A stretch of DNA of 64,000 nucleotides, taken from positions 31,129 to 95,128 of the forward strand of contig CAWUSX010000036.1 of the NCBI GenBank assembly GCA_963924875.1, written 5' to 3'. The notes beneath the pieces were generated by a model, which saw only the letters and a list, made by a program, of their open reading frames with translations, searched no databases and was not told where the DNA came from. Of this stretch, positions 28,024 to 43,373 are shown piece after piece. Position 1 is the stretch's first letter. Each line of letters begins with the position of its first letter. This DNA comes from an uncultured Gammaproteobacteria bacterium. GTDB lineage: Bacteria > Pseudomonadota > Gammaproteobacteria > SZUA-229. The position numbers and the translations under genes are program-made.

Positions 28024-31000
28024 TTAATCAGTTAACAGATGCTGTTTTTTATACATCACTGCATAATAAACCACCGGAATAACGATAAGTGTTAAAACAG
28101 TGGAAACCAGTAAACCAAAAATCAATGATATAGCCAGGCCGCTAAAAATTGGATCATCAATAATAAAGAAGCCACCAATCATCGCGGCGATGCCGGTTAG
28201 AATAATAGGTTTAGCACGCACCGCGGCGGAACTAATAACGGCCTGCTGAAAATCCATACCGGTTTTCACTTGCTGATTAATAAAATCCACCAGTAAAATA
28301 GAATTGCGCACAATAATGCCGGCAAGTGCAATCATGCCTATCATTGATGTCGCGGTAAATTGTGCATCGAGCAAGGCATGACCCGGCATAATCCCAATCA
28401 CAGTGAGTGGGATCGGCGCCATAATCACCAAGGGCACTTTGTAGGAATGAAATTGTGCCACCACCAGCAAATAAATCATTAATAAGCCAACGGCATATGC
28501 CGCGCCCATATCACGGAAGGTTTCATAGGTTACCTGCCATTCGCCATCCCATTTAAGGCTGTATTCATAGGGATTATCGGGTTGTTTTGTATACCATTGT
28601 TTAAGGCCGTTCTGCTCAGTCAGGGTATCTGAAATATCCAGCATACCGTATAACGGGCTGTCCAGTTCTCCGGCAAGATCTGCGGTTACATAAACAACCG
28701 GTAATAAGTTTTTATGATAAATATTTCTCTCACGTTCCCCCTGCCTGATTGTGACCAGATCAGTTAACGGTACCAGTGCGCCACTAACAGATCTGACCTG
28801 AAGTGCCAGTACCTGCTCGAGGTCCGCTTTATCAGCATCTGCAAATTCAATGCGAATAGGAACCGCATACTTTAAATTTTTACCGTGCAGAAAAGTCACA
28901 TCCGTACCGGATAAAATAGTGGTTAGTGCATCACTGATAACCTGTTGCGATACACCCAGTCTGGCTGCGCGTTGACGATCAACAATTATGGTGATTTTTT
29001 CGGCCGGGTATTCCACGCTGTCATCCACATCAACAATATTTTCTGTGTTTTCAAAAATATTACGTAATTGCCTGGCCTGTTTTATTTGCCCCTCATAATC
29101 CAGCCCGTAAACCTCGGCGACTATGGGTGACATCACTGGTGGGCCGGGTGGTACTTCAACAATTTTCACATTACCAGCATATTGCCTGGCAATTTTTTGT
29201 AAGGGTTCGCGCACCGAGGTAGCGATTTCATGACTTTGTCTTTCGCGACTATCTTTGTCGATTAAATTCACCTGAATGTCGCCAACATTAGCGGCCTCAC
29301 GTAAATAGTACTGGCGGACCAATCCATTAAAACTGATGGGTGCTGCAGTACCTGCATAAATTTCATAATCATTTACTTCATTCAGCTCACCAATATATTG
29401 CCCCATTTCATATAACACACGGCTGGTTTGTTCAAGGCTTGTGCCTTCGGGCATATCCAGAACAATCTGAAACTCACCCTTATTATCAGAAGGCAGCATT
29501 TTTAGTACAACGGCCTGAAACATAACCAGTGAAAGGGCGGCAAAAATAAGTAGCATTATTGAACCCAGCAGTAACCAGCGATTACGATTGCCCTGATTTT
29601 CACGCAGAAAGGGCGTCATTACGCGGCTAAAAAATCGTGACATCTTGTTGGCTTGCTGAGAGTCTTCAACGCCTTCGCCGCTATGCTGTTTTGTATTACG
29701 CAACATGATATTGCTGAACCAGGGGGTGAAGACAAAAGCGATAACCAATGATGCCAACATGCCCATGCTGGCATTAATGGGAATTGGGCTCATGTAGGGG
29801 CCCATTAAACCAGACACAAATGCCATTGGCAGCAAGGCGGCAATAACCGTAAAGGTTGCGAGTATCGTAGGGCTACCTACTTCATCAACCGCAATGGGAA
29901 TTAAATCAACCAACTTGCGTTTGCCCATTGCCATATGGCGATGAATGTTTTCCACCACCACAATGGCATCGTCGACCAGAATACCGATAGAAAAAATCAG
30001 CGCAAACAGAGAAACCCGGTTCAAGGTAAAGCCATAAGCCCAGGAGGCAAACAGGGTAATTAAGAGTGTAACCGCAACCGCCGCACCCACAATCAGACCC
30101 TCGCGCCAGCCCAGTGCCCACATCACTAATAAAATTACCGCGGTGGTTTCAATGATTAATTTATGTATGAGTTTTTCTGATTTGGCCTGAGCGGTAAGGC
30201 CATAATTTCGAGTGATGCTAACTTCAACACCATCGGGTATAAATGTGCCGCGCAATTCATCAAGTCGCTGAATGACCTGATTTGCTATATCAACCGCGTT
30301 GCTGCCGGGTTTTTTGGCAATCGCCAGAGTGACGGCGGGTTGAGGATTGTTGATGGCTTTTTGATTTGTAGTGTTTTCATGCGGATTTGTTTTGCTGCCT
30401 TTTCCAGAGGCAATTGAAACATATTGCGATGGTGAATCAACGCCATGTTCAATACTTGCGACATCCTGCAAATACACGGCTTTACCATCGAATACGCCAA
30501 CCACCAGTTCAGCTATTTCATCTGCCGAGCTTAAAAACATACCCGCCTGAAGTAAAATTTCCCGGTTATCAGTGGTCACCGTTAAATCATTACGTGCACT
30601 ATTTGCGGTGCGTAGTGCATTGCTCAGACTAGCGATATCAATGTTGTAACCGGACAGTGCCTGAGGATCGAGCAATACACGTATAACGCGCGTCGGGCTA
30701 CCAATGGTGTAAATATCACGCGTACCTGTAATACGTTTTAGTTCTGTTTCTAATGCGTGTGCAACCTGGCTTAATTCAAAGGCACCGGTTTGGGCATTTT
30801 TCGACCACAGCGTCACCGCAATAATGGGTACATCATCAATGCCTTTGGGTTTAATGATGGGTTGTCCTACACCCAGATTCGCAGGTAGCCAATCCTGATT
30901 CGAATACAGTTTGTTATACAGTCGAACGATGGCTGCGGTGCGATTTTCACCTACCAGAAACTGCACAGTAAGCACCGCCATGCCGGGTGTTGAAGTGGAG

Positions 31001-31260
31001 TAAACATGCTCAATTCCGCTGATTTCTGATATCACCTGTTCAGCTGGCGTTGCTACAAGGCTTTCAACCTCTGAGGCGGTCGCGCCCGGGAACGGAATAA
31101 ACACATTCGCAAAGGTGACATTAATTTGCGGGTCTTCTTCACGCGGTGTAATTAATACCGCAAACACACCAAGTAAAACACCAACCAGCGCAAGTAACGG
31201 CGTAATCTGCGTCGTCAAAAAATGTTTGGCGGTGCTGCCGGAAATACCAAGCTTAGTCAT
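28024..31260 (-). CDS. RND efflux transporter permease
   Basis: 1078-aa ORF with RND topology and the conserved VDDAIVVVENI motif. Its start overlaps the adaptor gene stop by 8 nt. Confidence 0.9.
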   Translation of the reverse strand: MTKLGISGSTAKHFLTTQITPLLALVGVLLGVFAVLITPREEDPQINVTFANVFIPFPGATASEVESLVATPAEQVISEISGIEHVYSTSTPGMAVLTVQFLVGENRTAAIVRLYNKLYSNQDWLPANLGVGQPIIKPKGIDDVPIIAVTLWSKNAQTGAFELSQVAHALETELKRITGTRDIYTIGSPTRVIRVLLDPQALSGYNIDIASLSNALRTANSARNDLTVTTDNREILLQAGMFLSSADEIAELVVGVFDGKAVYLQDVASIEHGVDSPSQYVSIASGKGSKTNPHENTTNQKAINNPQPAVTLAIAKKPGSNAVDIANQVIQRLDELRGTFIPDGVEVSITRNYGLTAQAKSEKLIHKLIIETTAVILLVMWALGWREGLIVGAAVAVTLLITLFASWAYGFTLNRVSLFALIFSIGILVDDAIVVVENIHRHMAMGKRKLVDLIPIAVDEVGSPTILATFTVIAALLPMAFVSGLMGPYMSPIPINASMGMLASLVIAFVFTPWFSNIMLRNTKQHSGEGVEDSQQANKMSRFFSRVMTPFLRENQGNRNRWLLLGSIMLLIFAALSLVMFQAVVLKMLPSDNKGEFQIVLDMPEGTSLEQTSRVLYEMGQYIGELNEVNDYEIYAGTAAPISFNGLVRQYYLREAANVGDIQVNLIDKDSRERQSHEIATSVREPLQKIARQYAGNVKIVEVPPGPPVMSPIVAEVYGLDYEGQIKQARQLRNIFENTENIVDVDDSVEYPAEKITIIVDRQRAARLGVSQQVISDALTTILSGTDVTFLHGKNLKYAVPIRIEFADADKADLEQVLALQVRSVSGALVPLTDLVTIRQGERERNIYHKNLLPVVYVTADLAGELDSPLYGMLDISDTLTEQNGLKQWYTKQPDNPYEYSLKWDGEWQVTYETFRDMGAAYAVGLLMIYLLVVAQFHSYKVPLVIMAPIPLTVIGIMPGHALLDAQFTATSMIGMIALAGIIVRNSILLVDFINQQVKTGMDFQQAVISSAAVRAKPIILTGIAAMIGGFFIIDDPIFSGLAISLIFGLLVSTVLTLIVIPVVYYAVMYKKQHLLTD

Positions 31261-32380
31261 CAGCTTGTCCTACCGATTGTTGGCGGCGCTGTTGCATGGT
31301 ATTAATTCCAGCCTGAATTGGGTCTAATGCTACGCGTTCACCTTCGTCAAGGCCGGATAAAATGGCCTGATTGCCATTATTAATATTCCCCAGACGCACC
31401 TGTCTGAAATTTATATTTCCATCATCAGATACCACATAAACAGCGGTTACCTCAGAGCGATGAGCAATGCTTTTTTGTGGAACCATCAATACCTGTTTTT
31501 CTCCGGTGACCAGAGCGGCTTTAACAAACATACCGGGAAACAGGCCTTCAATGCCTTCAGGCAAATCCAGTCTGACTTTGAAGGTGTTTGCGATTTGATC
31601 GGCAATTGGGAATATAGTAATTTTTTCCACGGCCACCTGCGTTTGCTCGGCGCTGGCCGAGGCATCGGTATAAACAAAGGCCTTGCCGTGTTGGCGAATA
31701 TTATTTATTAATTTTTGCGGTACATTTACATTCACTCGGAGTTTATTCAGTGAGACACCAGTCATTAGTTTAGAGCCGGCCTGTACGGTTTCACCCGCTT
31801 CAACATGGCGCTCGGTTACGATGCCGCTGTAAGGTGCCTTTATCCGGGTATACGATAATTGTTCATTGGCTTCATCAAGGCTTGCCCTGGCAGACTCTAA
31901 ACGTGCCTTTGCTACAGTCAATGCATTTGTCGTGGCATCCATGGTGGATTTGGAAACAAGCTTTTTGGCGTAAATATCCTTAATGCGTTTATATTCATCC
32001 TGCGCATTTGATAGATTGGATATAGCCTCTTTTTCACCCGCCTGTGCCTTTTTTAGCTGTGCCTGTTGTGACGTATCCTTCAGTTGAATAAGTAGGATGC
32101 CTTTCTCTACATAATCTTCAACATCAAATAGAATTTTTTGAATAGTGCCGGATGTCTGGGCGGAAACGGTTGCTTTGTTGATAGCTTCAACCGTGCCATC
32201 TAAACGAAACTCTCGGCTTAATAAATTTGCGCTAACGATAGCGGTTTCTAGTTTAGGTAATGTGCTCTCTGCTAGCGCAGGTTGTAGTGGTGCGAATTGT
32301 AAGAGCGTGAGCATGAAAGCAAAAAACAACCACTTTGAAGCAAAGAGCTGATTATGCAGAGGGAATTTTAAATTAATCAT
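31253..32380 (-). CDS. RND efflux periplasmic adaptor (membrane fusion protein, HlyD_D23 type)
   Basis: The tracked ORF starts at 32434. The start MINLKFPL... at 32380 gives a signal/TM segment followed by coiled-coil, lipoyl and beta-barrel regions. Confidence 0.85.
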   Translation of the reverse strand: MINLKFPLHNQLFASKWLFFAFMLTLLQFAPLQPALAESTLPKLETAIVSANLLSREFRLDGTVEAINKATVSAQTSGTIQKILFDVEDYVEKGILLIQLKDTSQQAQLKKAQAGEKEAISNLSNAQDEYKRIKDIYAKKLVSKSTMDATTNALTVAKARLESARASLDEANEQLSYTRIKAPYSGIVTERHVEAGETVQAGSKLMTGVSLNKLRVNVNVPQKLINNIRQHGKAFVYTDASASAEQTQVAVEKITIFPIADQIANTFKVRLDLPEGIEGLFPGMFVKAALVTGEKQVLMVPQKSIAHRSEVTAVYVVSDDGNINFRQVRLGNINNGNQAILSGLDEGERVALDPIQAGINTMQQRRQQSVGQADD

Positions 32381-32841
32381 ATTATCGCCTGAATGTAGAA
32401 ACGCCATGCCTTGTATATTGAGGGATATTAACAAATCTTTAGTTTAAGAATTAAAAAATCACAAGTGCTCATTATTTAGTGTGGATAAACAGGTGCTTAA
32501 TCGGCATAGAATTTTTAACAAAATACACGCTATGTCTTACCCGCTTATTAATACAACAATTTTACAAACACAGAATACTTGCAGCTACTAGTGAGAACAC
32601 TTGTTCGATGTTACTCCTGTTTGCTATCAGGTGTAAGTTGAATAAATATATTCCAGGCCCCACAAGAATATTATTCATCATGCCTGTTTATCTCTGTAGC
32701 TTACTTGTTAAAAGTAAATTTTCAGTGGCGAATAAAAGGTTTTGTCAGTGGTTTAAATAAACTTATATAGTAGAGATATATCTGCTTAATAAATAATTAT
32801 TTTTTAATCTAGATTGAAATCTATCGATAAAAAATTATAAA

Positions 32842-33579
32842 TCACGCCACTAAACGATCAGAGATTTTTTTGCCGGCACCTTTCACTAACTTTACCCATG
32901 CCTGTTTGCGGCGCTCAATCGGTGCAGATATCGACAGGCCCGCGATTACTCGGCGGTTACTGTCATAAATTAACACGCCAATGCAGCCGACACCTTCTTC
33001 TGCCTCTTCATCGTCGTAGGCAAAACCCAGGTTGTGAGATTGCTGAGTGGCATTTATTAAATCTGCTTCGGTAGTGAGGGTGTGTTGTGTGTAGGACTTA
33101 AGTCCGCTGCGGCTGGCGTAAGCGTGAATAAAGTGCTCGCCTAATTCTGCCAGCATGAGTTTTCCTACCGCCGTAACGTGTAATGGCGCACGGCTGCCAA
33201 TCACTTGCTCAACGCGCATCATGCGCTTCGGAGTGACACGTTCAATGTAAACGACTTCATCGCCTTCGCGCACGGTGAGGTTAACGGTTTCACCAATTTC
33301 ATCGCACAGTGCCTGCATTACGTCGAGCGCCGTTCCTCTAAGGTCAACACCACGGCGTACCTTGCTTGCCAGGCGAACCAGCTTATTGCCCAGCATATAA
33401 TGTCCGCCGGTATTTTTTTCTACAAATCCGGCCTCCATTAAGGCGGCAAGAATGCGAAAGGCGGTGGATGGGTGCAGGCCACTGTCGGCGGAGAGCATTT
33501 TTAGGCTAACTGGCTCATTGTATGTGCTAATTGCATCTAATAAACTGGCGCAACGATCTATGACTTGTATTGATGACAT
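32842..33579 (-). CDS. IclR-family transcriptional regulator
   Basis: 245-aa ORF with an N-terminal wHTH (SLKMLSADSGLHPSTAFRIL) and an IclR effector domain. It is divergent from the ThDP-enzyme gene. Confidence 0.85.
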   Translation of the reverse strand: MSSIQVIDRCASLLDAISTYNEPVSLKMLSADSGLHPSTAFRILAALMEAGFVEKNTGGHYMLGNKLVRLASKVRRGVDLRGTALDVMQALCDEIGETVNLTVREGDEVVYIERVTPKRMMRVEQVIGSRAPLHVTAVGKLMLAELGEHFIHAYASRSGLKSYTQHTLTTEADLINATQQSHNLGFAYDDEEAEEGVGCIGVLIYDSNRRVIAGLSISAPIERRKQAWVKLVKGAGKKISDRLVA

Positions 33580-33590
33580 AAGGCCTATAA

Positions 33591-33737
33591 TTTCATAATG
33601 TGAAAACGATTGTGTATTGTAAAATTATATAACCTGAGATAAGGTTTGCACAAGTACTAAATTGAGCGGTTAAATTAATAGCCGCTTTTTTTGGGTATCT
33701 AAATTTCACAATGCGAAATGATAGTTGCAATGTGAAA
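33591..33737. promoter_or_regulatory. Divergent promoter region with a repeated AATG(T/C)GAAA motif (candidate IclR operator sites)
   Basis: TTTCATAATGTGAAA (33591-33605) and ATTTCACAATGCGAAAT (33703-33719) are palindromic. A third half-site, AATGTGAAA, lies at 33729-33737. Confidence 0.4.
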
Positions 33738-33784
33738 TATGAAACAAATAGATAGCAACAACTAATAGAACGAGGGTTTCCCCC

Positions 33785-36006
33785 ATGAGTAGTCATACGA
33801 GCAGCAACAATTCAAATATTCCAGACTTTTGTCAGGGCATTCAGCACTTCGGTGAGAAGTGGCCTGATTTCGACAAACATGCTGCTCAGGCAGTAATTGC
33901 CGAAGGCAGCAAGGCTATTGCTAATAGTGCCGATGACAACAGCGTATACCAAACATTACTGGCCGCCGATGCATTGCGTTACCTCACACTTCAGGTAACG
34001 GGCTCTAAAGGCAGCGGTCACCCCGGTGGTTTCGCATCCAGTGCTGAAGCGCATGCCTCTTTAATGATGCTGGGTCACACGAATATAGTGACCGAAGTAG
34101 GCCACCATGCACCGGGTTTTTATTCCTCTATGTTCCTTGATAGCTCATTGGAAGACATGGGTATTAATACCATGGACGATATGATGGCGCGTTTCCGTGA
34201 ACGCCACGGTTTGCTGGGTCACTTGTCCGGTGCTATTCCCGGTTTGTTGGCACCCGCAGGCCCACTGGGTCAGGGTCAGCATTTTGCTATGGCCGGGGCT
34301 TATTTGCACCGTGATAAATTATTCCCGGTAACCATTGGTGATGGCGGCATGGGCGAGCCTTATGTGCTCAACTCAATGATGCACTTCACACGGCTTACCC
34401 AGACGTAACCAACTTTTTGCCTTGTCTAATCTGGAACGGTTATTCGCAGGAACATCATTCAATGGTGTCCTTGCATGATAATGAACAGATGATTAACTAC
34501 TGGACGGGCCACGGCTTCGAAGAAGTTATTCTTATTGATGCAAAAGATTTTGACGACAGCAAGCAGGAAGGCGCTTATGTAGACAGTAGTCGTTTTTCAT
34601 TAAAGCAACGATTGGCGTTTACCAAAGCGGTATTGCAAGGTGTTGATGCCGCTGCTAAATCGGCAATGGGTGGCAAGTTAACCGCCTTCATTATTAAGCA
34701 ATTAAAAGGTAGCGGCGTGCACACCGTTGGTGCCAAGTCACATAACCTATATCCTGCGGATACATTAGATCAGCCGCACATAATAGATGGCCTAAAGCGT
34801 CGTGCATTACCACCAGAGGCATGGCAATTGGTGCGTGATAACTTACGCCGCGCGGGTGGTGGCCCAGCATCTAAAACAGTGGTTACCGAAGGTGAATTGA
34901 AATTTGCCGCACTACCAAAATTGAACATGCAGGAGTTCGCGAAAGGTGAAAAGGCAGTACCTTCTACTGCTATGGGCGAGCTGGTAGGCCAAATGGGTAA
35001 ATCGGACGAACGCTATGTGGTAACCAATGCAGATGGTAACGAGGCATCGGCAATGAAAAACATTAACGACGCGTTAAAAATTCGTCACCCAACACAGGAT
35101 CCACTCTACAACCAGGAGCCGAATGGTCAGGTTTATGAACCATTAAATGAAGATGCCTGTGCAGGTTTTGCAGCAGCGTTAGCATTATTTGGTTCACGTT
35201 CTATCTGGTTGTCGTATGAATCATTTGCGATTAATGGCTGGCCGATTATGCAAACCGTTGCGCAGGCAATGGCAGAGCTACGCCGTAAAACACCGTCGAC
35301 ATTATGTATGTTTACCGCCGGCGCATTAGAGCAAGGTCGAAATGGCTGGACGCATCAACGCCCGGAAATAGAAAACTATTTTTCAGCGATGATGCGTAAC
35401 GGTAATTCATTTCCATTGTTTCCCTGTGATGCCAATGGTATTCAAACGGCATTTGAATATGCGACCGGAAGTTACAACAAGAGCATGGTGATTATTGCTT
35501 CGAAAAGTCCATTGCCAATTTACATGACAATAGATGAATCGCGTAAGGCAATGGAAGAGGGTGCAGCAACTATTTATGAATCTGCATCGGGAAGCAAAGG
35601 TACGGTTGTATTTGCAGTAACCGGCGACATGGTATTCCTGCCCGTATTTGAGGCCAAAGAAAAAATGGAAGCGGCGGGCTATAAAGTACGCATCGTTGCA
35701 GTTGTTAACCCACGTCGTTTGTATCGTGAAACAGACATAGCCTGGGATACGGTTTCACAACCCGATAACAAGTTTATGGATGATGCGCAGTTTAATGCAC
35801 TGTTTGATGGCGATGCATTGTTGGCAGTTAGTGGTGGCCCGAGTGGCGCACTGGAGCCTGTATTGCTGCGTACTCGTGCGCCAAAACGTGATACTTTTTG
35901 CTGGAAACGTGGTGAAACTACCGCATCCCCAGCAGAGATCATGGCATTCAATGGCATCACAGCCGATGCAATGATGTCGCGTGTTGAAGATTTTTTTGCG
36001 GGCTAA
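33785..36006 (+). pseudogene. Transketolase/phosphoketolase-superfamily ThDP-dependent enzyme, disrupted by a 1-nt frameshift (ORF fragments 33785-34408 and 34417-36006)
   Basis: Fragment 1 has the GSGHPGG and GDGGMGEP motifs. The second frame is open from 34342. Read through 34387, it continues ...HTAYPDVTNFLPCLIWNGYSQ. The GDG-X(about 30)-N ThDP-binding motif is therefore split between the two frames. Confidence 0.7.
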
Positions 36007-36032
36007 TAAAGCAGTTAAGTAAGGTCAATGCA

Positions 36033-36067
36033 TTTATTTCGCGGGGTAAATTGCCCTGCGAAATAAA
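36033..36067 (+). promoter_or_regulatory. Intercistronic stem-loop
   Basis: TTTATTTCGCGGGG-TAAATTG-CCCTGCGAAATAAA forms a 14-bp stem with one G-U pair. There is no U-tract on either strand. Confidence 0.4.
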
Positions 36068-36117
36068 GCCTTAAATAAAAAAATAATTTATTAAGAAAAT
36101 TGAATGAGTAAAACTAG

Positions 36118-37440
36118 ATGAGCAAAACAAAAATCATTGTACTGGATGACGACCCAACAGGTTCGCAGACGGTGCACAGTTGTTTGTTGTTAACACGCTG
36201 GGATGTGGAAACATTAAAGCAGGGCTTAACGGATGCAGCGCCATTGTTTTTTGTACTCACCAATACACGTGGCATGAGTGCAACGGATGCGGCTAAGCTA
36301 ACCCGCGAAGTGTGTGTGAACTTACGTGCAGCATTAAAACTACTGGCGGCGCAGGGTAATGATATAAATCCATTACTGGTGAGTCGATCCGATTCAACCT
36401 TGCGAGGCCACTATCCGGTAGAAACGGATATTATCGCCGAAGAGCTGGGGCCATTTGATGCACACTTTATGGTGCCCGCATTTTTTGAAGGTGGGCGTAT
36501 TACTATCGACAGTATTCATTATTTGATGGTAGATGGTAAGCCGGTGCCGGTGCATGAAACAGAGTTTGCACGTGATTCAGTATTTGCTTACTCGCACAGT
36601 TATTTGCCGGATTATGTTGAAGAAAAAACCAGCGGGCGAATTAAAGCAGCGCAGGTTGAACGTTTTGTATTGCAGGATGTTCACGGTGATTCATCGGCAA
36701 GATTACTGGCATTAAATGGCAATCAATGTTGTGTGGTTGATGGTGAAATACAAAGTGATCTTAATCATTTTTGTGCGCAGTTAATGCAGGCCGCCGAAAA
36801 AGGCAAACGCTTTCTATTTCGCAGTGCCGCGAGTTTGTTAACGGCATTGGCGCAATTGCCGGCACAGCCGGTTGCCGCGAGTAAAATGCGTGAATATGTG
36901 CGCGATAATAAAGCCGGTGCGGTGATTGTTGGCTCGCATGTAAGTAAAACAACAAAACAGCTAAATCACCTGTTGCAGCAAGAAGGCATACAGGGAATTG
37001 AAATTGATGTTAAAAAAATTGCCACGCAGCGCAAGCAGCTACTCGCTGATGTAATTGCAGAAACACAGGATTGTCATGCAAAAAATATAACGCCGGTAGT
37101 CTACACCAGCCGTACGGAATTAAAATTCAAAGATCAGCAAACACGACTGGCATTTGGTGAACAGGTGTCTGCATTCTTGATGGACGTGGTGAGAAATTTA
37201 CCTGCAACAACAGGGTTTTTAATCAGCAAGGGTGGCATTACGTCTAATGATGTATTGAGTGATGGTTTGGCCCTGCGCACCTCGCGCGTGGTCGGGCAGA
37301 TCCTCGCGGGCTGTTCAGTAGTGCGTTGCCCGAAAGATCATCCGCGTTACCCTGAAATGCCGGTGGTTATTTTCCCCGGTAATGTAGGTGACGATGAGGC
37401 GTTGGCAACGGTTTATCAACGGATAAAGCCAGTTGATTAA
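36118..37440 (+). CDS. Four-carbon acid sugar kinase family protein (DUF1537; OtnK/DtnK-like)
   Basis: 440-aa ORF with the N-terminal VLDDDPTGSQT signature and the two-domain length typical of DUF1537 kinases. Confidence 0.8.
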   Translation: MSKTKIIVLDDDPTGSQTVHSCLLLTRWDVETLKQGLTDAAPLFFVLTNTRGMSATDAAKLTREVCVNLRAALKLLAAQGNDINPLLVSRSDSTLRGHYPVETDIIAEELGPFDAHFMVPAFFEGGRITIDSIHYLMVDGKPVPVHETEFARDSVFAYSHSYLPDYVEEKTSGRIKAAQVERFVLQDVHGDSSARLLALNGNQCCVVDGEIQSDLNHFCAQLMQAAEKGKRFLFRSAASLLTALAQLPAQPVAASKMREYVRDNKAGAVIVGSHVSKTTKQLNHLLQQEGIQGIEIDVKKIATQRKQLLADVIAETQDCHAKNITPVVYTSRTELKFKDQQTRLAFGEQVSAFLMDVVRNLPATTGFLISKGGITSNDVLSDGLALRTSRVVGQILAGCSVVRCPKDHPRYPEMPVVIFPGNVGDDEALATVYQRIKPVD

Positions 37441-37666: not shown

Positions 37667-38986
37667 CTATTGCAGTGGTAAGCTTACTTCTGCTTTAAAG
37701 CCGCCGAGATCCGTAGACTGTTTAAACTGGATACTGCCGTTGTAGTCTGTGACAACGTCTGTCGCTATCGCCAAACCAAAACCATGTCCCTGAATTTTTT
37801 CGTCGAGGCGAATGCCTCTTTTTGAAAGCTCATTTATTTTTTGTGGATCGGCTCCCGGGCCATCATCTTCAATGCAGATATGAAGTTGAGCATTTATATT
37901 TACACTCAGAGTAATATTTTTTTCCGCCCACTTATAGGCGTTATCCAGTAAGTTACCAAGCAATTCCAGCATGTCTTCACGATCGACCGGGCAGGTAATA
38001 TTCTCCGGGATGTTTGTCGTTAACTGTAGTGGCTTATTGGTATACATCATATCTAGCGTTTTAATCAGCGAGGGAAGATCGTCCGGAAAAGAAAATAACG
38101 CACCCGTGTGGCTTGGGCCCGCCAGCCTTGCGCGTTTAAGTATGCGATCTGTTAACTGATAAATATCATCAGACTGATTTATTAAAGTGGTTTTTGTCGC
38201 ATCGGGAATATCACTTTTATGTGTTATCTGCTGAATGACGGTTAAGGGTTTTTTTATGGCGTGCGCCAGATCACTCAGGGCATCGCGCGAACGACGTAGA
38301 CGTTTTTTTGTTATCGTTAGTAGATGATTTACTTCATTGATTAATGGGCGTAATTCATCGGGGGCATTTGTGCTGAGTTTATCTAGCTGCCCCTGTTGTA
38401 ATGATTTAAGTTCATCATGTACTTTGTTGAGTGGTTGCAAACTGAGGCGGAGGATAAATACCTGCAAAATAACCAGAGCTAATAACAGACCGAAGGCGAT
38501 ACCAGCAAACCAGTACTGAAACTGCTGGATGTTTTTATTAATGGGGTTGAGATCTTCGGCGACCGTAATAGTTAGTGGTTGCCCGTGTTTTTTGTAACCA
38601 ATAGATACAAGTAATAAAGTTTGCTTCTCGGGCCCTTGCTGCAGGGTATTAATTTGTTGGCCCGTATTAAGGCTTACAGTATTTAATTCTGCATCCCATA
38701 AAGAACGCGAATTCATCGATTGTTTTCTGCTGGAGATTAAATAATAGTGGCCGGAAAATGGTTGATCGTAGATTGCATCAATATGTGTTGTATCGATGGT
38801 TAACTTATCCTCGGTGTCGAAACTCGTTGAACTGAGTAATGTCGCGGCATCATGCTTAAGGCGTGATGCAATATAATCCTCTGCGACAAATTGAAGGTTA
38901 TAACTGACGAGTAACCACAGCGCAGAAAAGGCGATGATTAAACTGAGCAACAATCCGCTACTGAGTTTTGACTGAATGGAACGCAT
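37667..38986 (-). CDS. Two-component sensor histidine kinase (two TM segments, HAMP-like region, HisKA, HATPase)
   Basis: 439-aa ORF. It has the H-box LSDLAHAIKKPL, the N-box LLDNAYKW, and the G-boxes DDGPG and GHGFGLAI. Its start overlaps the regulator stop. Confidence 0.85.
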   Translation of the reverse strand: MRSIQSKLSSGLLLSLIIAFSALWLLVSYNLQFVAEDYIASRLKHDAATLLSSTSFDTEDKLTIDTTHIDAIYDQPFSGHYYLISSRKQSMNSRSLWDAELNTVSLNTGQQINTLQQGPEKQTLLLVSIGYKKHGQPLTITVAEDLNPINKNIQQFQYWFAGIAFGLLLALVILQVFILRLSLQPLNKVHDELKSLQQGQLDKLSTNAPDELRPLINEVNHLLTITKKRLRRSRDALSDLAHAIKKPLTVIQQITHKSDIPDATKTTLINQSDDIYQLTDRILKRARLAGPSHTGALFSFPDDLPSLIKTLDMMYTNKPLQLTTNIPENITCPVDREDMLELLGNLLDNAYKWAEKNITLSVNINAQLHICIEDDGPGADPQKINELSKRGIRLDEKIQGHGFGLAIATDVVTDYNGSIQFKQSTDLGGFKAEVSLPLQ

Positions 38987-39651
38987 CAGTTGTTATTCCT
39001 GAACACGTATCCCTGTCCGCGTCTGGTTTCTATGCGATCATTACCTACGATATGACGTAAACGTCTGACATAAACCTCGATAACATTGCTGTCCTTTTCT
39101 GAGTCGAAGTCATAAATATGTTCAGTAAGACGAGACTTGGATAAAACCTTTTCCGCATGTAATAAAAAATAACGTAATAGACGAAATTCGATACCGGTTA
39201 GTTTATGTTGCTGGCCATCTGCGGTGGTGACTGTCTGTTGTTCTTCATCCAGAGATAAACCGATTGCGTTTAGTGTTCCACCCGGTTGCTGGATTGAGCG
39301 ATGCATTAAAGCGGTAATTCTTGCTAGCAGCTCTTCGACATGGAATGGCTTACCCAGGTAATCATCTGCACCGGCCTTAAAACCATCAACACGTTCATGC
39401 CATGCATTACGCGCGGTGAGTACAATTACCGGTAGGTGATTGGCATTGCTTCGCCAGTTTTTTAAAACCTCTATGCCACTGCGTTGCGGCAAACCAAGAT
39501 CGAGCACGGCGACATCATAAATCATCTCGTTGCCAAGGTATTCGGCATCGACGCCATTGTCGGCTACATCCACGGCATAACCCGCGGACTGTAAATCTTT
39601 TTTAAGAGTATCGACAAGATCCCTGTCGTCCTCGGCTAGCAGCAGGCGCAT
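38986..39651 (-). CDS. OmpR/PhoB-family response regulator
   Basis: 221-aa ORF with a REC domain (MRLLLAEDD, DVAVLDLGLP, KPF) and a winged-helix output (GYVF). Confidence 0.9.
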   Translation of the reverse strand: MRLLLAEDDRDLVDTLKKDLQSAGYAVDVADNGVDAEYLGNEMIYDVAVLDLGLPQRSGIEVLKNWRSNANHLPVIVLTARNAWHERVDGFKAGADDYLGKPFHVEELLARITALMHRSIQQPGGTLNAIGLSLDEEQQTVTTADGQQHKLTGIEFRLLRYFLLHAEKVLSKSRLTEHIYDFDSEKDSNVIEVYVRRLRHIVGNDRIETRRGQGYVFRNNN

Positions 39652-39653
39652 GC

Positions 39654-39968
39654 CTAGTCATCCTCCTTGCTAGACAATACCTTGCCGGTTCTGGCATTTA
39701 TATAAATCTCCCTAACGACATTATCATCACCCAGTACCTCCACTTCGTAGACAATCTCGTTGTCTTCGCTTTCAAGTTGAACTTCGAGAATGCTACCGGG
39801 AAATTTTTGCCTAACGTTTTTGAGAATAGCTTCCAGTGGCAGGATTTCACCTGCCTCGAGTAAGCGCCTTGCCTCAATATGATCATTATCGGCCAATGTT
39901 ATATGTGGCAGACCGAAGAGCATAAAAGCTACCAGCAAGGCATAAAACTTGTGTGATTTAATATTCAT
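39654..39968 (-). CDS. PepSY domain-containing periplasmic protein
   Basis: The tracked ORF starts at 39986. The start MNIKSHKFYALLVAF... at 39968 gives a signal peptide. The C-terminal half matches the PepSY pattern (ILEVQLE....YEVEVL......EIYINARTGKVL). Confidence 0.75.
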   Translation of the reverse strand: MNIKSHKFYALLVAFMLFGLPHITLADNDHIEARRLLEAGEILPLEAILKNVRQKFPGSILEVQLESEDNEIVYEVEVLGDDNVVREIYINARTGKVLSSKEDD

Positions 39969-39993
39969 TGTTCGATTATATACCAATCATTGA

Positions 39994-40557
39994 TTAATCA
40001 TCCCATCGACCGTACCCAGGTATACGTATATCGTGTTCATTAAATGAACCCTTCTCGGCTTTTGCATGACAGGCATTGCACTGGCTAAAGCTCCTTACTT
40101 TAGGATTGGCGGATACCAGACGATCAGGGACTTCGTCATGTTTGTGCCTGAAGTATGGCGTAGCGGTTATGCGCACGGGTACATCACCAGATTTAATGGA
40201 GTTATTGAATTTAATTGAACGACGATAAGCGGATTTGTCGGCGCTGTTGCTTAGCAGGTATTCACTGATGGACTTAGATACCTCGGCATCAAGCTCGGCG
40301 TTGTCGCCAAAATGATTATCAAGTTGTGACATTAGCTTGCTCCAGGATTTTGCCGGTAATAAACCCGCAGGATAAGCCATATGGCAACTGCCACATTCCT
40401 CTTTGTAAAGCGGACTGTCTATCACGGCGACCCCCGATGATTTATGTTTGTATTCATCCATTTCGCCCCAGCTAAAATCATTATCGCCCCAGACTATAGG
40501 GAGTGTAACAATTCCGATAGTGAAGATAACAGCGGTTATTGCGAGTGTGCTTTTCAT
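39994..40557 (-). CDS. Diheme cytochrome c (DHC family)
   Basis: 187-aa ORF with a signal peptide and two CxxCH heme sites (CGSCH and CNACH). Confidence 0.8.
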   Translation of the reverse strand: MKSTLAITAVIFTIGIVTLPIVWGDNDFSWGEMDEYKHKSSGVAVIDSPLYKEECGSCHMAYPAGLLPAKSWSKLMSQLDNHFGDNAELDAEVSKSISEYLLSNSADKSAYRRSIKFNNSIKSGDVPVRITATPYFRHKHDEVPDRLVSANPKVRSFSQCNACHAKAEKGSFNEHDIRIPGYGRWDD

Positions 40558-40567
40558 ATTCTTACTC

Positions 40568-40984
40568 CTAAAAGGTGCTTGTCTTGTTTAAATAAACTAA
40601 AAGGTTGGCCTTTTCCTGAGCGCTGCATTCACGATTCATTGTCCACAGGCAATTTCGTTTAAACCATTTTTCAACCTTTTTGCTATCGGTAAAGCGTTGA
40701 GCATTGCTCGATGGCGACATCGGTTTTATTTGCTTGCCGGTTTTAACGTGCTTGCCAACAGCGGTTAAATCTTTTGTATGGCAGGAAGTGCAACTGCGAG
40801 TGGAAAATTCGCCATCGTAGTTAAATGTTTTTTTCCACAGCTGCTCCCCCTGTTTTTCGTCAGGGGTGGTGGCATTCTGGCTGGCGTAATTCTGTAACAG
40901 CTTGTTTACTGTTTTACTGTCGGCCTGAGCAACGGCCGATGACAGGCTGATTATTAATGCAGCATACAGAGTCAGGGTTTTCAT
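40568..40984 (-). CDS. Monoheme cytochrome c, DUF1924 / SHP-like
   Basis: 138-aa ORF with a signal peptide and a single CTSCH site. As I recall them, the C-terminal RFTDSKKVEKWFKRNC...C..QEKANLL pattern resembles Sphaeroides-heme-protein-type cytochromes. Confidence 0.7.
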   Translation of the reverse strand: MKTLTLYAALIISLSSAVAQADSKTVNKLLQNYASQNATTPDEKQGEQLWKKTFNYDGEFSTRSCTSCHTKDLTAVGKHVKTGKQIKPMSPSSNAQRFTDSKKVEKWFKRNCLWTMNRECSAQEKANLLVYLNKTSTF

Positions 40985-41574
40985 AACTTCTCCTCGATAC
41001 TATTATTTTTTGCGGGCTTAAAGCCGGTTATCATGGCAGACACCAGGTTCTCTTTATGAATAAGGCTTTCCACGAGCACGCCGAACACATGCACAACCAC
41101 CAGTAGCAGGGTAAAGTTGGCAAAGAACTCATGTATTTCTTCAAGTGCATCACCCCAAAAACCAACGGGCTGCGTAAACCAGTACGCAACGGGGCCGGCC
41201 TGTTCTTCTGCACCTAACAGCAAAATACCGCTGCTTGTTGTCATTAACAGACTGAATATCAGCAAGATCACCATGGCACCACCCGCCGGATTATGACCAA
41301 GGTAGCGTTTGGCTCGAAGGTGCAGGGTGTCCTTTAAAAACTGCATAATATTTTTTGGGGAATAAACAAAATTCGAAAAGCGCGCATAGCGGGTACCGAT
41401 AAATCCCCAGGCCAATCGAATGACCAGTAGTGAAAAAATAAGATAACCCGCCCAGCTGTGTACCGCTAAAAAATCGTCCTCGGTAAAGTAGGCAATAAAA
41501 AATGCGCTGGCCAGGGACCAGTGGAAAAAACGAACGAACGGATCCCAGACCCTGATTTCAGATGATTTAGTCAT
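40981..41574 (-). CDS. Cytochrome b561-type (Ni_hydr_CYTB family) membrane cytochrome b
   Basis: 197-aa ORF with four TM helices and conserved His residues (FFHWS, VHSWAGY, GHNP, VVVHVFGV). Its stop overlaps the next gene by 4 nt. Confidence 0.8.
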   Translation of the reverse strand: MTKSSEIRVWDPFVRFFHWSLASAFFIAYFTEDDFLAVHSWAGYLIFSLLVIRLAWGFIGTRYARFSNFVYSPKNIMQFLKDTLHLRAKRYLGHNPAGGAMVILLIFSLLMTTSSGILLLGAEEQAGPVAYWFTQPVGFWGDALEEIHEFFANFTLLLVVVHVFGVLVESLIHKENLVSAMITGFKPAKNNSIEEKL

Positions 41575-41854: not shown

Positions 41855-43138
41855 TTATTTAACAGTGACTCTTTGCTCTAAGTTGTTAGGAGCGACAAAA
41901 TAATAACGCTTTCCTTGTTTGGTCTTTACTAATAATTTCAGTTTATCTGACATGTATAACAAGTCTTTTCTCGCCACATCATACGATATTCCATGTGATC
42001 GTTGATGCTCCTGTATTACATAGCTAAAACGTGGATGTTTAAGCGCATGACGCAACAATGCCAACTGACGAAAGTTCAGCTTCCCACTCAATCTCGGATT
42101 ATCAATTAATAAACGCTCGGCTTCATTTACGCCCGTCATTTTCTCATCCAGAAATACGTGCAAGTCATCAACGGCTTGATGAATAGCTTCCAGTTGATGT
42201 ATCAAAAAATACGTTAGATCATTATCATCTGTTTCAGTATAAAGAAATGCCTTTCCATACTGCACAGGCGCTTTCTTAATAACCCTGGAGATAGATACAA
42301 ACTCCATCAGCCAATAGCCCTGCTTTGCCATTGCCCAATAGAATAATGCTCTAGCAGTACGTCCATTGCCGTCACAAAAAGGGTGGTCATATGCCAGCAT
42401 AAAATGCAGAATTATTGCTTTAAGTACCGGATGTAAAAACACTTCATCCGTTTCGCTACTTATTTCTTTATTAGAAAAGTCACAAAGTACCTGTAGTCGA
42501 TCTTCTAATTCATCTGCATTTGGAGGTGTATGAAGAAATTTTTGAGTTGCGCTATCCACTACTTGAATATCATCAGCGGCGGTACGAAAACCTCCAGCTT
42601 CATTTTCATCAAGCGTTTTACGCATCAATATATGATGCAATTCAAATACAATTGAGGGCGTTAAATCTTCATTCTTCATTTCCCGAATAAACTGCATCGC
42701 TTGATAGTTATTCAGAATCATTTGCTCGCTTTTATCTTTTGGATCTCGATCCTGGCGTATCATTTCCTTGGCAACATCACGTGTCGTCGAAGCGCCTTCT
42801 AACTGGCTTGAATTAATTGCTTCTTCAATCAATGAGCGAATTAAATATGTATTTCGAGTTTGCGAATTGGTAATAGCATCACTAGATTGTATATTGCCAG
42901 CTGCATAGCGATCGAGCCAATGCAACTCACGCCAGACTTGATCTGGCACAGCATACTGAAATGGCGTACGATACTTATTCGATAATGGTAATTGCTTATA
43001 TATGCTTCTGCGCGCCGTTTTAAGGCAGAACCACCACTCTTCATTATTATTTAAATTTTTATCTTCCAGAGGCAAATGTCGAAGCTTATCCCAGTGTAAA
43101 TAACGCCCCTTAGAGTCTACGGGGCTATTGTTATTCAT
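41855..43138 (-). CDS. Fic-family protein (AMPylase-type), class II with an N-terminal inhibitory motif
   Basis: 427-aa ORF with the canonical active site HPFCDGNGRTAR. The (S/T)xxxE(G/N) inhibitory motif SSQLEG lies upstream in the same protein. The C-terminus looks like a wHTH. Confidence 0.88.
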   Translation of the reverse strand: MNNNSPVDSKGRYLHWDKLRHLPLEDKNLNNNEEWWFCLKTARRSIYKQLPLSNKYRTPFQYAVPDQVWRELHWLDRYAAGNIQSSDAITNSQTRNTYLIRSLIEEAINSSQLEGASTTRDVAKEMIRQDRDPKDKSEQMILNNYQAMQFIREMKNEDLTPSIVFELHHILMRKTLDENEAGGFRTAADDIQVVDSATQKFLHTPPNADELEDRLQVLCDFSNKEISSETDEVFLHPVLKAIILHFMLAYDHPFCDGNGRTARALFYWAMAKQGYWLMEFVSISRVIKKAPVQYGKAFLYTETDDNDLTYFLIHQLEAIHQAVDDLHVFLDEKMTGVNEAERLLIDNPRLSGKLNFRQLALLRHALKHPRFSYVIQEHQRSHGISYDVARKDLLYMSDKLKLLVKTKQGKRYYFVAPNNLEQRVTVK

Positions 43139-43335
43139 AAGCCGAAAAAAAAATCTGTTCCTCTCTCCATAATGGAGGTAAAAAGAGCATCAAAATTTGG
43201 TGGTGAGACTGGTATTTGCATTCTTTTATTTTCTTTAAAAACAATCAGTTAGATAGGTTGTTGGAAATAATATGCTTGATTTTTAAAAACAAGTATAACA
43301 GATAGAGGCAATGCTGTTAATTGTAAATGTAACAA

Positions 43336-43352
43336 CACTGCTGTCCCGTTAA
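43336..43352 (+). repeat. Left terminal inverted repeat of the IS element
   Basis: It is the exact reverse complement of 44594-44610. Confidence 0.85.
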
Positions 43353-43373
43353 GAACTAAATAAGGTAGGTCTG

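Follow-up and report, generated by a model that had tools for sequence, protein, structure and literature searches.

A conserved ThDP enzyme and DUF1537 kinase module with a divergent IclR regulator gene, possibly serving glycolate salvage in CO2-fixing bacteria

The 64,000-nucleotide stretch of DNA analysed here (the window) contains a three-gene module, consisting of a divergent IclR regulator gene, a ThDP enzyme gene and a DUF1537 kinase gene. The arrangement is not due to chance, as it recurs in dozens of independent genomes. The module probably serves glycolate/glyoxylate metabolism (the salvage of RuBisCO-made 2-phosphoglycolate) in Calvin-cycle autotrophs, and it is tentatively described here as an operon that responds to glyoxylate and salvages glycolate (2-phosphoglycolate), possibly via an oxo-tetronate intermediate. 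The coordinates that an earlier note on this DNA gave for the three genes are all correct, and the arrangement that it described is real. The features are:

32842..33579, minus strand: iclR, gene of an IclR-family transcriptional regulator of 245 aa (Pfam HTH_IclR and IclR_C), divergent from the operon
33591..33605, no strand: putative operator 1, palindrome TTTCATAATGTGAAA (motif match)
33664..33694, plus strand: terminator-like hairpin and T-run in the leader, between both operators (consensus scan)
33704..33718, no strand: putative operator 2, palindrome TTTCACAATGCGAAA (motif match), about 65 bp upstream of the enzyme start codon
33785..34387, plus strand: ThDP enzyme, 5' part (PP domain, up to the lesion), with GSGHPGG, GPLGQGQ and GDG; closest to transketolase 6YAK
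34387..34388, plus strand: site of a one-base deletion, relatives having CACTTCCACACGG and the window CACTTCACACGG
34390..36006, plus strand: ThDP enzyme, 3' part in the other frame (end of PP, Pyr and C-terminal domains; Pfam XFP, Transket_pyr and XFP_C)
36033..36067, plus strand: stem-loop in the enzyme/kinase intergenic region, 16-bp stem (RNA fold)
36118..37440, plus strand: DUF1537 (four-carbon acid-sugar kinase family) protein of 440 aa (Pfam SBD_N and NBD_C)

As it stands, the 5' ORF of the enzyme gene (33785-34408) ends at a stop at 34408, and a second ORF covers 34417-36006. The lost base is one C in CACTTC[C]ACACGG, as shown by the alignment with intact relatives (L001, L002, L089 and L090). 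A joined length of about 736 aa had been claimed, which is the length of the intact protein of L089 and L090 (95% DNA identity to the window, with shared synteny); the repaired window protein has 740 aa. In these nearest relatives the enzyme gene is intact and under strong purifying selection. The pN/pS values versus L089 on the two sides of the lesion are 0.016 and 0.049, and because of these low values (0.02-0.05) the frameshift is either recent or a sequencing error. It is conceivable, if somewhat doubtful, that the module of the window is a decaying remnant, with a genuine frameshift mutation and no enzyme produced. Besides the frame break itself, this would agree with the lack of GlcDEF and aldolase genes at this locus, with the IS element present in the window at 6 kb from the module and with a different IS directly 3' of the kinase gene in one close relative. 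However, the pN/pS values are low on both sides of the lesion, the enzyme is intact in relatives of 95% DNA identity, the operators, iclR and the kinase gene of the window are all intact, and the loss of a single base is a frequent assembly or sequencing error. The remnant reading applies to the window's copy only and fits alongside every functional model. The earlier view is amended in that the window's copy of the enzyme is broken and that most phosphoketolase catalytic residues are conserved.

The joined enzyme scores 100 bits with the NCBIfam phosphoketolase models (cut-offs at least 777) and 42 bits with the transketolase models (cut-off 488). When compared with Pfam, as the earlier note had proposed, XFP_N, XFP and Transket_pyr are barely over their cut-offs and XFP_C is barely under. 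The sole other full-length relative in a library clustered at 50% identity is P0121 (53% identity), followed by canonical phosphoketolases with 25-29% identity in the HMMER-matched stretches (E about 1e-20); the enzyme does not cluster inside ordinary transketolases or phosphoketolases. The best PDB match of the N-terminal 350 aa is the split-chain transketolase 6YAK (E = 1e-8, versus 3.5e-4 for phosphoketolases), whereas the remainder is nearest to phosphoketolases (1e-26, versus 1e-7 for transketolases). This is in agreement with the mixed character noticed before; of the motifs named, GSGHPGG is present, and the spacing from GDG to LIWNGYSQ is about 27 residues, not 30. Judged from these comparisons, the enzyme is an isolated, deep-branching and tightly conserved family of about 740 aa in the transketolase/phosphoketolase superfamily, and a mosaic in which the PP domain is transketolase-like and the Pyr and C-terminal domains are phosphoketolase-like.

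The predicted structure (pLDDT 89) has the three-domain ThDP fold of the Xfp phosphoketolases (Bifidobacterium 3AHC/3AI7, Lactococcus 6GUA, Synechococcus 8IO8), with TM scores of 0.77-0.80 for phosphoketolases and 0.68-0.71 for transketolases, where the presence of phosphoketolases in the input alignment of the model may bias it towards them; the transketolase value is 0.78 if normalised to the transketolase length. The N-terminal motifs are also shared with transketolases, as are all donor-binding histidines. The Pyr domain is unlike that of transketolase in having the phosphoketolase-type SYESF and NGWTHQ, and there is an Asn in place of the transketolase Asp, which reads the C4 hydroxyl of the sugar. 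Using the phosphoketolase catalytic residues listed in PMC10547157 and their roles as described in PMC11648648, equivalents of His64, His97, His142, His320, His553, Glu479, Tyr501, Asn549, Gln546 and Lys605 are found in the enzyme, together with the GDG...NGY cofactor motif (LIWNGYSQ corresponds to Asn215, SYESF to Tyr501, NGWTHQ to Asn549/His553 and ASKSP to Lys605). Across the family and the canonical phosphoketolases, His64, His97, His320, Glu479, Tyr501, Asn549, His553 and Lys605 are invariant and His142 is nearly so; Gln546 is invariant in the smaller alignment (A3), not in A4. In contrast to Xfp, Glu437, Arg442 and His548 are replaced, the overall identity in alignments is only 17-21%, the PP domain has the transketolase motifs GSGHPGG and GPLGQGQ, and the protein is about 60 residues shorter, lacking the C-terminal extension and the KGWTGP insertion.

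The family occurs in at least 564 species genomes; host labels and loci were examined for the best 80 of these. Their taxon names, from which autotrophy is read, belong to groups that fix CO2, namely cyanobacteria and oxidisers of sulfur, iron and nitrite. In 67 of the 68 proteobacterial (non-cyanobacterial) loci the kinase gene immediately follows the enzyme gene, such that the adjacency is conserved. In the cyanobacterial loci the enzyme gene is retained with no kinase, IclR or GlcDEF gene beside it. GlcD or GlcF is encoded within 10 kb in 24 of the 36 well-covered loci, and a third of the proteobacterial loci, the window among them, have no GlcDEF within that distance. By its scores (GlcE 493, cut-off 284; GlcF 657, cut-off 333; GlcD 891, cut-off 897), the linked oxidase is a genuine glycolate oxidase GlcDEF. 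Dehydrogenases, isomerases and transporters are not constant neighbours across the loci. About nine loci encode, in or near the cluster, a relative of tartronate-semialdehyde reductase (232 bits, cut-off 341), a dehydrogenase whose gene lies directly 3' of the enzyme gene in L065. An LtnD-related dehydrogenase is present at some loci, and other neighbours are transport proteins of small-acid-carrying families (an OxlT-type MFS transporter, TRAP and ABC binding proteins).

The IclR protein matches HTH_IclR (E = 3e-13) and IclR_C (2e-41), and its top NCBIfam match is the glyoxylate-responsive regulator BhcR (163 bits, under the cut-off of 350). Of the 66 related loci having enough upstream sequence, 60 have an iclR gene in divergent orientation. 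The palindrome TTTCRYAWTRYGAAA is found exactly in 53 of 62 iclR/enzyme intergenic regions, in 59 within one mismatch, and not once in 1.06 Mb of flanking DNA; its only two matches in the window (0.29 expected) are the putative operators, to which the IclR protein probably binds. The conserved palindrome thus supports the regulation that had been proposed. The stem of the leader hairpin is maintained by compensatory changes in L001, L009 and L003; it has no match among Rfam families and could be an attenuator or insulator.

The kinase starts with MSKTKIIVLDDDPTGSQT, and the SBD_N (197 bits) and NBD_C (140 bits) matches bear out its assignment to DUF1537. It scores 73 bits with the D-threonate kinase model (cut-off 450), is 27% identical to E. 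coli OtnK/YgbK over 177 aa and has no sequence match in the PDB. Because it is far from every characterised DUF1537 kinase, a four-carbon substrate is a family-level guess only. Among the loci, the identities of enzyme and kinase co-vary (r = 0.87). The kinase is dedicated to the enzyme, and Gamma-, Beta- and Zetaproteobacteria inherit the two together as one unit. A 126-nt stretch at the stem-loop between the two genes folds at -29.9 kcal/mol (z = -3.7). The stem-loop, which occurs once in the window, shows compensatory changes in L089 and L090 and is absent from L001; it is not a classical terminator, as there is no T-run after the stem.

In the proposed salvage operon, the IclR protein would bind the palindromes, and a build-up of glyoxylate or a similar small acid would probably make it release the operon. 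The chemistry is speculative. The enzyme might make ThDP-bound 'active glycolaldehyde', for which all the holding histidines of transketolase and phosphoketolase are kept, and transfer it to glyoxylate, sitting in the small anion pocket used for phosphate by phosphoketolases, which would give 3-oxo-tetronate. The kinase could then phosphorylate this compound at C4, and loss of CO2 from the beta-keto acid phosphate, by a 2-OtnC-like class II aldolase (some loci) or a housekeeping enzyme, would generate dihydroxyacetone phosphate. A precedent is the conversion of oxo-tetronate into DHAP by a DUF1537 kinase and an F_bP_aldolase-type decarboxylase (Guo 2024, as cited in PMC12540250). Several observations speak against this reading. 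The acceptor pocket retains phosphoketolase-specific residues, which alone favours acetyl-phosphate formation over glyoxylate transfer; a class II aldolase is near the pair in only 3 of the 36 well-covered loci; only half of the glycolate carbon would be recovered, below the known glycerate pathway; and neither the cyanobacterial loci nor the GlcDEF-less proteobacterial ones, including the window, fit well.

It is also possible, though unlikely, that the enzyme is a true phosphoketolase, converting a ketose phosphate (or glycolaldehyde, erythrulose or hydroxypyruvate) and phosphate into acetyl-phosphate, with the kinase acting on a by-product or substrate of this reaction. Autotrophs would thereby gain acetyl-CoA without CO2 loss, for example for the malate synthase condensation with glyoxylate. 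The top structural and sequence matches are phosphoketolases, most members are so named by automatic annotation, the catalytic histidines and the Tyr501, Asn549, Gln546 and Lys605 equivalents are conserved, and phosphoketolases accept glycolaldehyde and erythrulose (PMC10547157). Against this, the enzyme fails every curated phosphoketolase model by far, Glu437, Arg442 and His548 are replaced, the neighbourhoods examined have no malate synthase gene, no acetate kinase (ackA) or phosphotransacetylase (pta) gene is linked, and the near-invariable linkage with the DUF1537 kinase instead is left unexplained. Moreover, the cyanobacterial member is probably an extra paralogue and not the main phosphoketolase, because the phosphoketolase pathway is present in about 98% of cyanobacteria (PMC7744508). 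Cyanobacterial members carry differing annotations (phosphoketolase, transketolase or hypothetical protein). As a lead, the cyanobacterial 'second phosphoketolase' may belong to this family, comparing by description alone Synechocystis sll0529, an untested putative pket2 (PMC7744508), and Anabaena alr1850, entered as 'transketolase' (PMC4915528); unlike the proteobacterial module, the cyanobacterial loci of the family lack the kinase and IclR neighbours.

A non-orthologous glycerate pathway is similarly improbable. The enzyme would act as a glyoxylate carboligase, converting two glyoxylate molecules into tartronate semialdehyde and CO2, a HIBADH-type reductase would form glycerate, and the DUF1537 protein would be a glycerate kinase, feeding phosphoglycerate into the Calvin cycle. 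The IclR protein would correspond to AllR, the glyoxylate-responsive regulator of gcl and glxK in E. coli. More carbon would be recovered, the logic matches that of the E. coli gcl...glxK operon, and the module resembles the E. coli AllR-gcl-glxR-glxK system in that one glyoxylate-linked regulon comprises a regulator of the IclR family, a kinase and a ThDP enzyme, with orthologues of E. coli GlcDEF adjoining at many loci. The reductase-related dehydrogenase of about nine loci (L065 included) is also in agreement, and glycerate is the three-carbon homologue of the known DUF1537 substrates. However, the reductase is absent at most loci, and the ThDP enzyme and kinase are from entirely different families than Gcl and GlxK. 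Carboligases described so far are members of another ThDP family, no transketolase/phosphoketolase-fold member is known to use 'active formaldehyde', and no DUF1537 protein is known to act as a glycerate kinase. All histidines binding the C1 hydroxyl of the two-carbon ketol are kept, which is needless for a C1 intermediate.

The earlier note's framing, in which a sugar acid such as threonate or erythronate is imported and catabolised as in the OtnK, DtnK and DenK pathways and the ThDP enzyme adds a C-C cleaving step, is very unlikely: the kinase family, the LtnD-related dehydrogenase and the TRAP binding protein, Liv-type ABC system and MFS transporter adjoining the pair at some loci are in its favour, but, judging by their taxon names, the great majority of hosts are obligate or specialised autotrophs, the linked oxidase is that of glycolate, no dehydrogenase, isomerase or transporter is constant and no transporter adjoins the pair in the window. 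The DUF1537 kinase is shared with OtnK/OtnC (E. coli ygbJKLM) and 2-OtnK/2-OtnC (Arthrobacter; Arabidopsis LTD), but in the module the constant partner is the ThDP enzyme and not an LtnD/DenD dehydrogenase or OtnI isomerase. The module regulator is of the IclR type, unlike E. coli YgbI, which is a DeoR-type regulator, and unlike VdtR of the Brucella erythronate pathway, a DeoR-family protein (PMC10580937). The partner enzymes that the earlier note named for DUF1537 kinases agree with PMC12540250, and a ThDP enzyme is indeed absent from those pathways; nonetheless, an F_bP_aldolase-type (class II aldolase) protein follows the kinase in a few related loci (L001, L009 and L012), as for 2-OtnK/2-OtnC (PMC12540250). 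No paper connecting DUF1537 with a phosphoketolase-like enzyme, or describing the pairing, was found. The earlier suggestion of an uncharacterised pathway is supported, with GlcDEF and the CO2-fixing hosts pointing to glycolate/glyoxylate metabolism and not to imported sugar acids.

As the trio is conserved in CO2-fixing bacteria, usually beside glycolate oxidase genes, it may be that these organisms use it to recycle the glycolate that arises from the oxygenase side reaction of RuBisCO.

The cassette described in the earlier note, in which an IclR-family regulator gene is divergent from a ThDP enzyme gene and a DUF1537 kinase gene, is real, all three genes being confirmed by the ORF listing and by Pfam, and the interpretation given there, of an unusual pairing of a transketolase/phosphoketolase-like ThDP enzyme with a DUF1537 kinase, stands with the refinements described here. 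The three genes are arranged as follows:

32842-33579, minus strand: IclR-family regulator (ORF listing; Pfam HTH_IclR and IclR_C)
33785-34408 and 34417-36006, plus strand: ThDP enzyme gene, in two frames (ORF listing; Pfam)
36118-37440, plus strand: DUF1537 kinase, N-terminus MSKTKIIVLDDDPTGSQT (Pfam SBD_N and NBD_C)

In a scan with one genome per species, a relative of the enzyme is found in at least 564 genomes, of which the best 80 loci were examined; 73 of these are distinct non-cyanobacterial loci. Neighbours were counted by tblastn because the ORF clusters included antisense artefacts; clusters c6, c7, c9, c12 and c18 were rejected as real neighbours, being such artefacts in GC-rich genomes. 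Among the non-cyanobacterial loci of these best 80, 68 extend downstream of the enzyme gene by 1.5 kb or more, and in 67 of them the DUF1537 kinase gene directly follows it in the same orientation (median gap, about 79 bp). Of 66 non-cyanobacterial loci with enough upstream sequence, 60 have a divergent IclR gene, and the identities of the enzyme and the kinase co-vary (r = 0.87). No accessible paper was found that links DUF1537 with a phosphoketolase-like enzyme, and both the enzyme and its obligatory pairing with a DUF1537 kinase appear to be undescribed.

The SBD_N domain and the NBD_C domain of the kinase are both matched over their full length in Pfam (196.8 and 139.5 bits, respectively), as in the DUF1537 architecture. 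The score against the D-threonate kinase model is 73 bits, versus a cut-off of 450, the match to Escherichia coli OtnK (E = 2e-5) has 27% identity and covers 177 of the 440 residues, and a search of the PDB sequences with the kinase gave no match at E ≤ 1e-3. As judged from these comparisons, the kinase is a clear DUF1537 protein but the orthologue of no characterised member (OtnK, DtnK). DUF1537 kinases are known to act with dehydrogenases, with an isomerase and with decarboxylases that belong to the Aldolase_II or F_bP_aldolase families (PMC12540250, which cites Zhang 2016 and Guo 2024).

The joined enzyme passes the Pfam cut-offs narrowly for XFP_N (29.6 versus 23.7) and XFP (41.1 versus 22), its Transket_pyr match is only just over the threshold, and its XFP_C score falls below the cut-off (22.5 versus 23.4). 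It lies far outside the NCBIfam families, with a best phosphoketolase score of 99.8 bits (cut-offs, 777-1518) and at most 42 bits with the transketolase models (cut-offs, at least 488). In a library of 1.84 billion representatives clustered at 50% identity, the sole other full-length close relative is P0121, the most divergent member of the family (53% identity), the remaining close ones being fragments, and after it, the best full-length matches (25-29% identity, E about 1e-20) are to canonical phosphoketolases, which are about 800 aa long. Clustered at 90%, the family has more than 3,300 members, nearly all of 732-750 aa. This gap, together with the many near-uniform members, indicates that the family is large, tightly conserved and isolated.

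The earlier note had also described the enzyme as a transketolase/phosphoketolase mixture of unusual length, and this is correct, as seen from the motifs and from the domain-wise matches. Residues 1-350, which carry the transketolase motifs GSGHPGG and GPLGQGQ, best match the split-chain transketolase 6YAK (E = 1e-8, versus 3.5e-4 for phosphoketolases). The rest of the enzyme, with the phosphoketolase-type SYESF, NGWTHQ and ASKSP, best matches Bifidobacterium phosphoketolase (E = 2e-26, versus 1e-7 for transketolases). The motifs of the Pyr domain are thus phosphoketolase-like and not of the transketolase type, and the N-terminal domain alone is nearer to transketolase. A structure prediction made earlier from 10 near-identical sequences was unusable (pLDDT 56), whereas the AlphaFold model made from a 46-sequence alignment has a pLDDT of 89.3. 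The top 20 PDB matches of this model are phosphoketolases (E = 1e-35 to 1e-31, TM 0.71-0.80), the closest having TM 0.77-0.80, with the transketolases close behind (TM 0.68-0.71). As a caveat on this likeness, phosphoketolases were among the aligned sequences from which the model was built. The model shows a three-domain ThDP fold of the transketolase/phosphoketolase type.

The active site was compared with the residue list of Bifidobacterium breve phosphoketolase (PMC10547157), using the residue roles given in PMC11648648. In alignments with canonical enzymes, the histidines His64=H75, His97=H103, His142=H142, His320=H316 and His553=H520 are kept, as are Glu479=E452, Tyr501=Y474, Gln546=Q513, Asn549=N516 and Lys605=K570, and the GDG and the asparagine of NGY are likewise retained in the family. 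Three residues are replaced in the family, His548 by Arg515, Glu437 by Gly414 and Arg442 by Ala419, of which Arg442 is variable among canonical phosphoketolases too. Because the catalytic and acceptor-site residues are kept, the protein is very probably an active ThDP enzyme, forming the usual dihydroxyethyl-ThDP and having a small, phosphoketolase-like acceptor pocket, and the conserved histidines indicate a two-carbon ketol intermediate. No characterised member of the family was found in the literature searched.

The two frames of the enzyme gene result from one missing C at 34387/34388, where alignment with intact relatives shows CACTTCACACGG in the window versus CACTTCCACACGG in the relatives; with this C restored, the gene encodes a 740-aa protein reading ...MMHFHTAYPDVTNFLPCLIWNGYSQ... 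across the repair. In L089 and L090, the loci of the two nearest relatives, the flanking genes are the same and the encoded enzyme, of 736 aa, is intact; the DNA identity is 95% across 4.7 kb. When compared with L089, pN/pS is 0.016 on the 5' side of the lesion and 0.049 on its 3' side, and these low values, together with the intact near relatives, imply that strong purifying selection acted on the gene up to the very recent past. Either the mutation is new, or the lesion stems from an error in sequencing or assembly. Programmed frameshifting is unlikely, since there is no slippery sequence and the extra C is present in all relatives. Being interrupted, the copy in the window is worth less as a working example, and the observation made at the level of the family keeps its value.

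The region between the iclR and enzyme genes contains two copies of a 15-bp palindrome (33591-33605 and 33704-33718), which are the only matches to TTTCRYAWTRYGAAA in the 64 kb (0.29 expected). Among 62 distinct loci with a divergent iclR gene, TTTCRYAWTRYGAAA is found in this intergenic region exactly in 53 and with at most one mismatch in 59, and it has no matches in 1.06 Mb of flanking sequence. This conservation makes the palindrome a strong candidate for the operator of the IclR protein. The best regulator model for this protein is BhcR (163 bits, far under the cut-off); BhcR, IclR and AllR respond to glyoxylate. Two stem-loop elements are also seen:

33664-33694, plus strand: terminator-like hairpin followed by seven T's, in the leader, between both palindromes
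36033-36067, plus strand: stem-loop (stem of 16 bp) that lacks a T-run, between the enzyme and kinase genes

The stem of the first is kept through compensatory changes in three relatives' loci (L001, L009 and L003), and this hairpin may be an attenuator or an insulator. The second is unique in the window; in L089 and L090 it is kept, with compensatory changes, and L001 lacks it. Searches of the leader and of the enzyme/kinase intergenic stretch against Rfam gave nothing credible.

By gene content, the window, which carries his genes, tatC, iPGM, monomeric IDH, amtB and bipA, looks chromosomal and gammaproteobacterial. The cassette is flanked by the following:

23455-27986, plus strand: RND efflux system, AcrB-type pump and outer-membrane factor, upstream of iclR
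28024-32434, minus strand: RND efflux system, AcrB-type pump and membrane fusion protein, directly upstream of iclR
37667-41574, minus strand: PhoQ/OmpR-type two-component pair, then PepSY, dihaem cytochrome, DUF1924 and cytochrome b genes
41855-44591: Fic/DOC protein gene and IS element (DUF4372 and DDE_Tnp_1)

The two RND systems stand back to back. The PhoQ/OmpR-PepSY-cytochrome block is also present in L089, where a different IS (DUF772/DDE_Tnp_1; L089 6711-8138) is inserted directly 3' of the kinase gene; the differing ISs suggest that insertions are attracted downstream of the module. Further on, an allophanate hydrolase gene without an adjoining urea carboxylase adjoins the gene of monomeric isocitrate dehydrogenase (44978-49104, plus strand). 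The 740-aa ORF at 46882-49104 was considered as a second copy of the enzyme and was rejected, as it is this isocitrate dehydrogenase, unrelated despite its equal length. The stretch 54161-57242 (minus strand) contains a full-length DUF1631 gene, of 778 aa, and after it an ORF of 226 aa whose match to this family is confined to the C-terminal end, which may be a partial duplication.

With tblastn, neither a class II aldolase nor glcDEF is found in the 64-kb window, and so the window itself lacks both the decarboxylase that adjoins the kinase in an oxo-tetronate pathway of the 2-OtnK/2-OtnC type and a glycolate oxidase linked to the module. Across the non-cyanobacterial loci among the best 80, glcD or glcF is found within 10 kb in 24 of 36 with enough flank, and an F_bP_aldolase gene in 3 of 36 that are well covered (the named carriers are L001, L009, L012 and L008). 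The adjoining oxidase is a genuine GlcDEF glycolate oxidase according to NCBIfam (GlcE, 493 versus a cut-off of 284; GlcF, 657 versus 333; GlcD, 891 versus 897). Recurrent neighbours are an OxlT-type oxalate/formate MFS transporter and a TRAP binding protein. In seven loci of Gallionellaceae (L024, L026, L027, L030, L032, L035 and L039), the pair is followed by genes for a Liv-type ABC transporter and for a CoA-acylating methylmalonate-semialdehyde dehydrogenase, with an added HIBADH-type dehydrogenase, related both to tartronate-semialdehyde reductase and to L-threonate dehydrogenase (LtnD), in L026, L027, L030 and L039. In L008 (7598-8773, minus strand), a class II aldolase fused to a Dabb (stress-responsive alpha/beta-barrel) domain adjoins iclR and does not follow the kinase gene.

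Eleven cyanobacterial loci among the best 80 of at least 564 encode an enzyme that is 65-69% identical, without an adjoining kinase gene, IclR gene or GlcDEF. In one of them ([Phormidium] sp. LEGE 05292; L074 10001-21543), a DUF1537 kinase gene lies 8 kb 3' of the enzyme gene on the same strand, with toxin-antitoxin-like and unknown genes between them, an arrangement that resembles the proteobacterial pair in disrupted form. Neighbours common to several cyanobacterial loci (by sequence alone, a Uma2-type endonuclease, a DUF262 protein and a peptidase/COP23-like protein) were judged to be unrelated to the function of the enzyme. Among filamentous cyanobacteria, Nostocales included, the family occurs widely, being annotated as phosphoketolase, transketolase or hypothetical protein. 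Synechocystis sll0529 ('pket2'), explicitly called untested (PMC7744508), and Anabaena alr1850, listed as 'transketolase' (PMC4915528), may be members.

According to the record titles, the other hosts are Chromatiaceae, Thiocapsa, Halothiobacillus, Acidithiobacillus, Thiotrichales, Thioalkalispiraceae, Gallionella, Sideroxydans, Sulfuriferula, Thiobacillus, other Hydrogenophilales, Nitrotoga and Zetaproteobacteria, together with one Campylobacterota symbiont bin and one Acidobacteriota bin. Neither the Acidobacteriota locus (L065) nor P0121 yielded a further clue to a fuller operon. From the taxon names, we take the host groups to be overwhelmingly Calvin-cycle autotrophs. Since regulators of this IclR type often sense glyoxylate, GlcDEF makes glyoxylate and the families of the neighbouring transporters carry small acids, the context of the module points to glycolate/glyoxylate metabolism in autotrophs that contain RuBisCO. 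The substrates of the kinase family are four-carbon acid sugars. It is possible that the enzyme would condense active glycolaldehyde with glyoxylate into 3-oxo-tetronate, which the kinase would convert into 3-oxo-tetronate 4-phosphate, and that loss of CO2 would then generate dihydroxyacetone phosphate. Each step has a chemical precedent and is putative for the present proteins. This oxo-tetronate scheme is preferred because it is the single scheme that uses all of the regulator, GlcDEF, the transporters, the ketol histidines, the four-carbon kinase family and the 2-OtnC-like aldolase (3 loci). A glyoxylate-linked salvage module, probably operating via oxo-tetronate, is accordingly proposed only tentatively, at somewhat less than even confidence.

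Two other explanations are nearly as good as the oxo-tetronate scheme, each being unlikely when taken singly. In a non-orthologous glycerate pathway, the enzyme would be a carboligase and the kinase a glycerate kinase. Alternatively, the enzyme could be a true phosphoketolase supplying acetyl-phosphate, which is favoured by the phosphoketolase-type acceptor pocket. Catabolism of imported sugar acids is less probable again.

Because of oxygenation by RuBisCO, 2-phosphoglycolate has to be disposed of in all aerobic Calvin-cycle organisms, and a link between the enzyme-kinase module and phosphoglycolate salvage is plausible. The more specific proposal, of a previously unrecognised 2-phosphoglycolate/glycolate salvage route in Calvin-cycle autotrophs, is doubtful at present; here, the enzyme would join a two-carbon unit to glyoxylate and the kinase would commit the four-carbon keto acid to dihydroxyacetone phosphate, in bacteria that oxidise sulfur, iron or nitrite, in purple sulfur bacteria and possibly in cyanobacteria. 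In the literature, no accessible paper was found linking the enzyme with glcDEF in a natural pathway, and no natural pathway was found combining a phosphoketolase with an acid-sugar kinase, oxo-tetronate or phosphoglycolate salvage, or with glycolate oxidase in Gallionella, Sideroxydans, Thiobacillus and Acidithiobacillus.

The names 'phosphoketolase' and 'transketolase' are probably wrong for thousands of current database entries, and metabolic models counting these entries as Xfp would err. The family, being between transketolase and phosphoketolase in sequence, could show the origin of phosphoketolase chemistry, and it could also give new carbon-carbon bond chemistry for synthetic glycolate/C2 assimilation pathways. 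To our knowledge, the fate of glyoxylate past glycolate oxidase is unsettled for many chemolithoautotrophs. If true, the salvage reading would fill the long-noted gap after glycolate oxidase in many of their genomes, and the near-invariant pair, with its conserved candidate operator and the vicinity of GlcDEF, in a family present in the genomes of at least 564 species, is a concrete candidate for the missing step.
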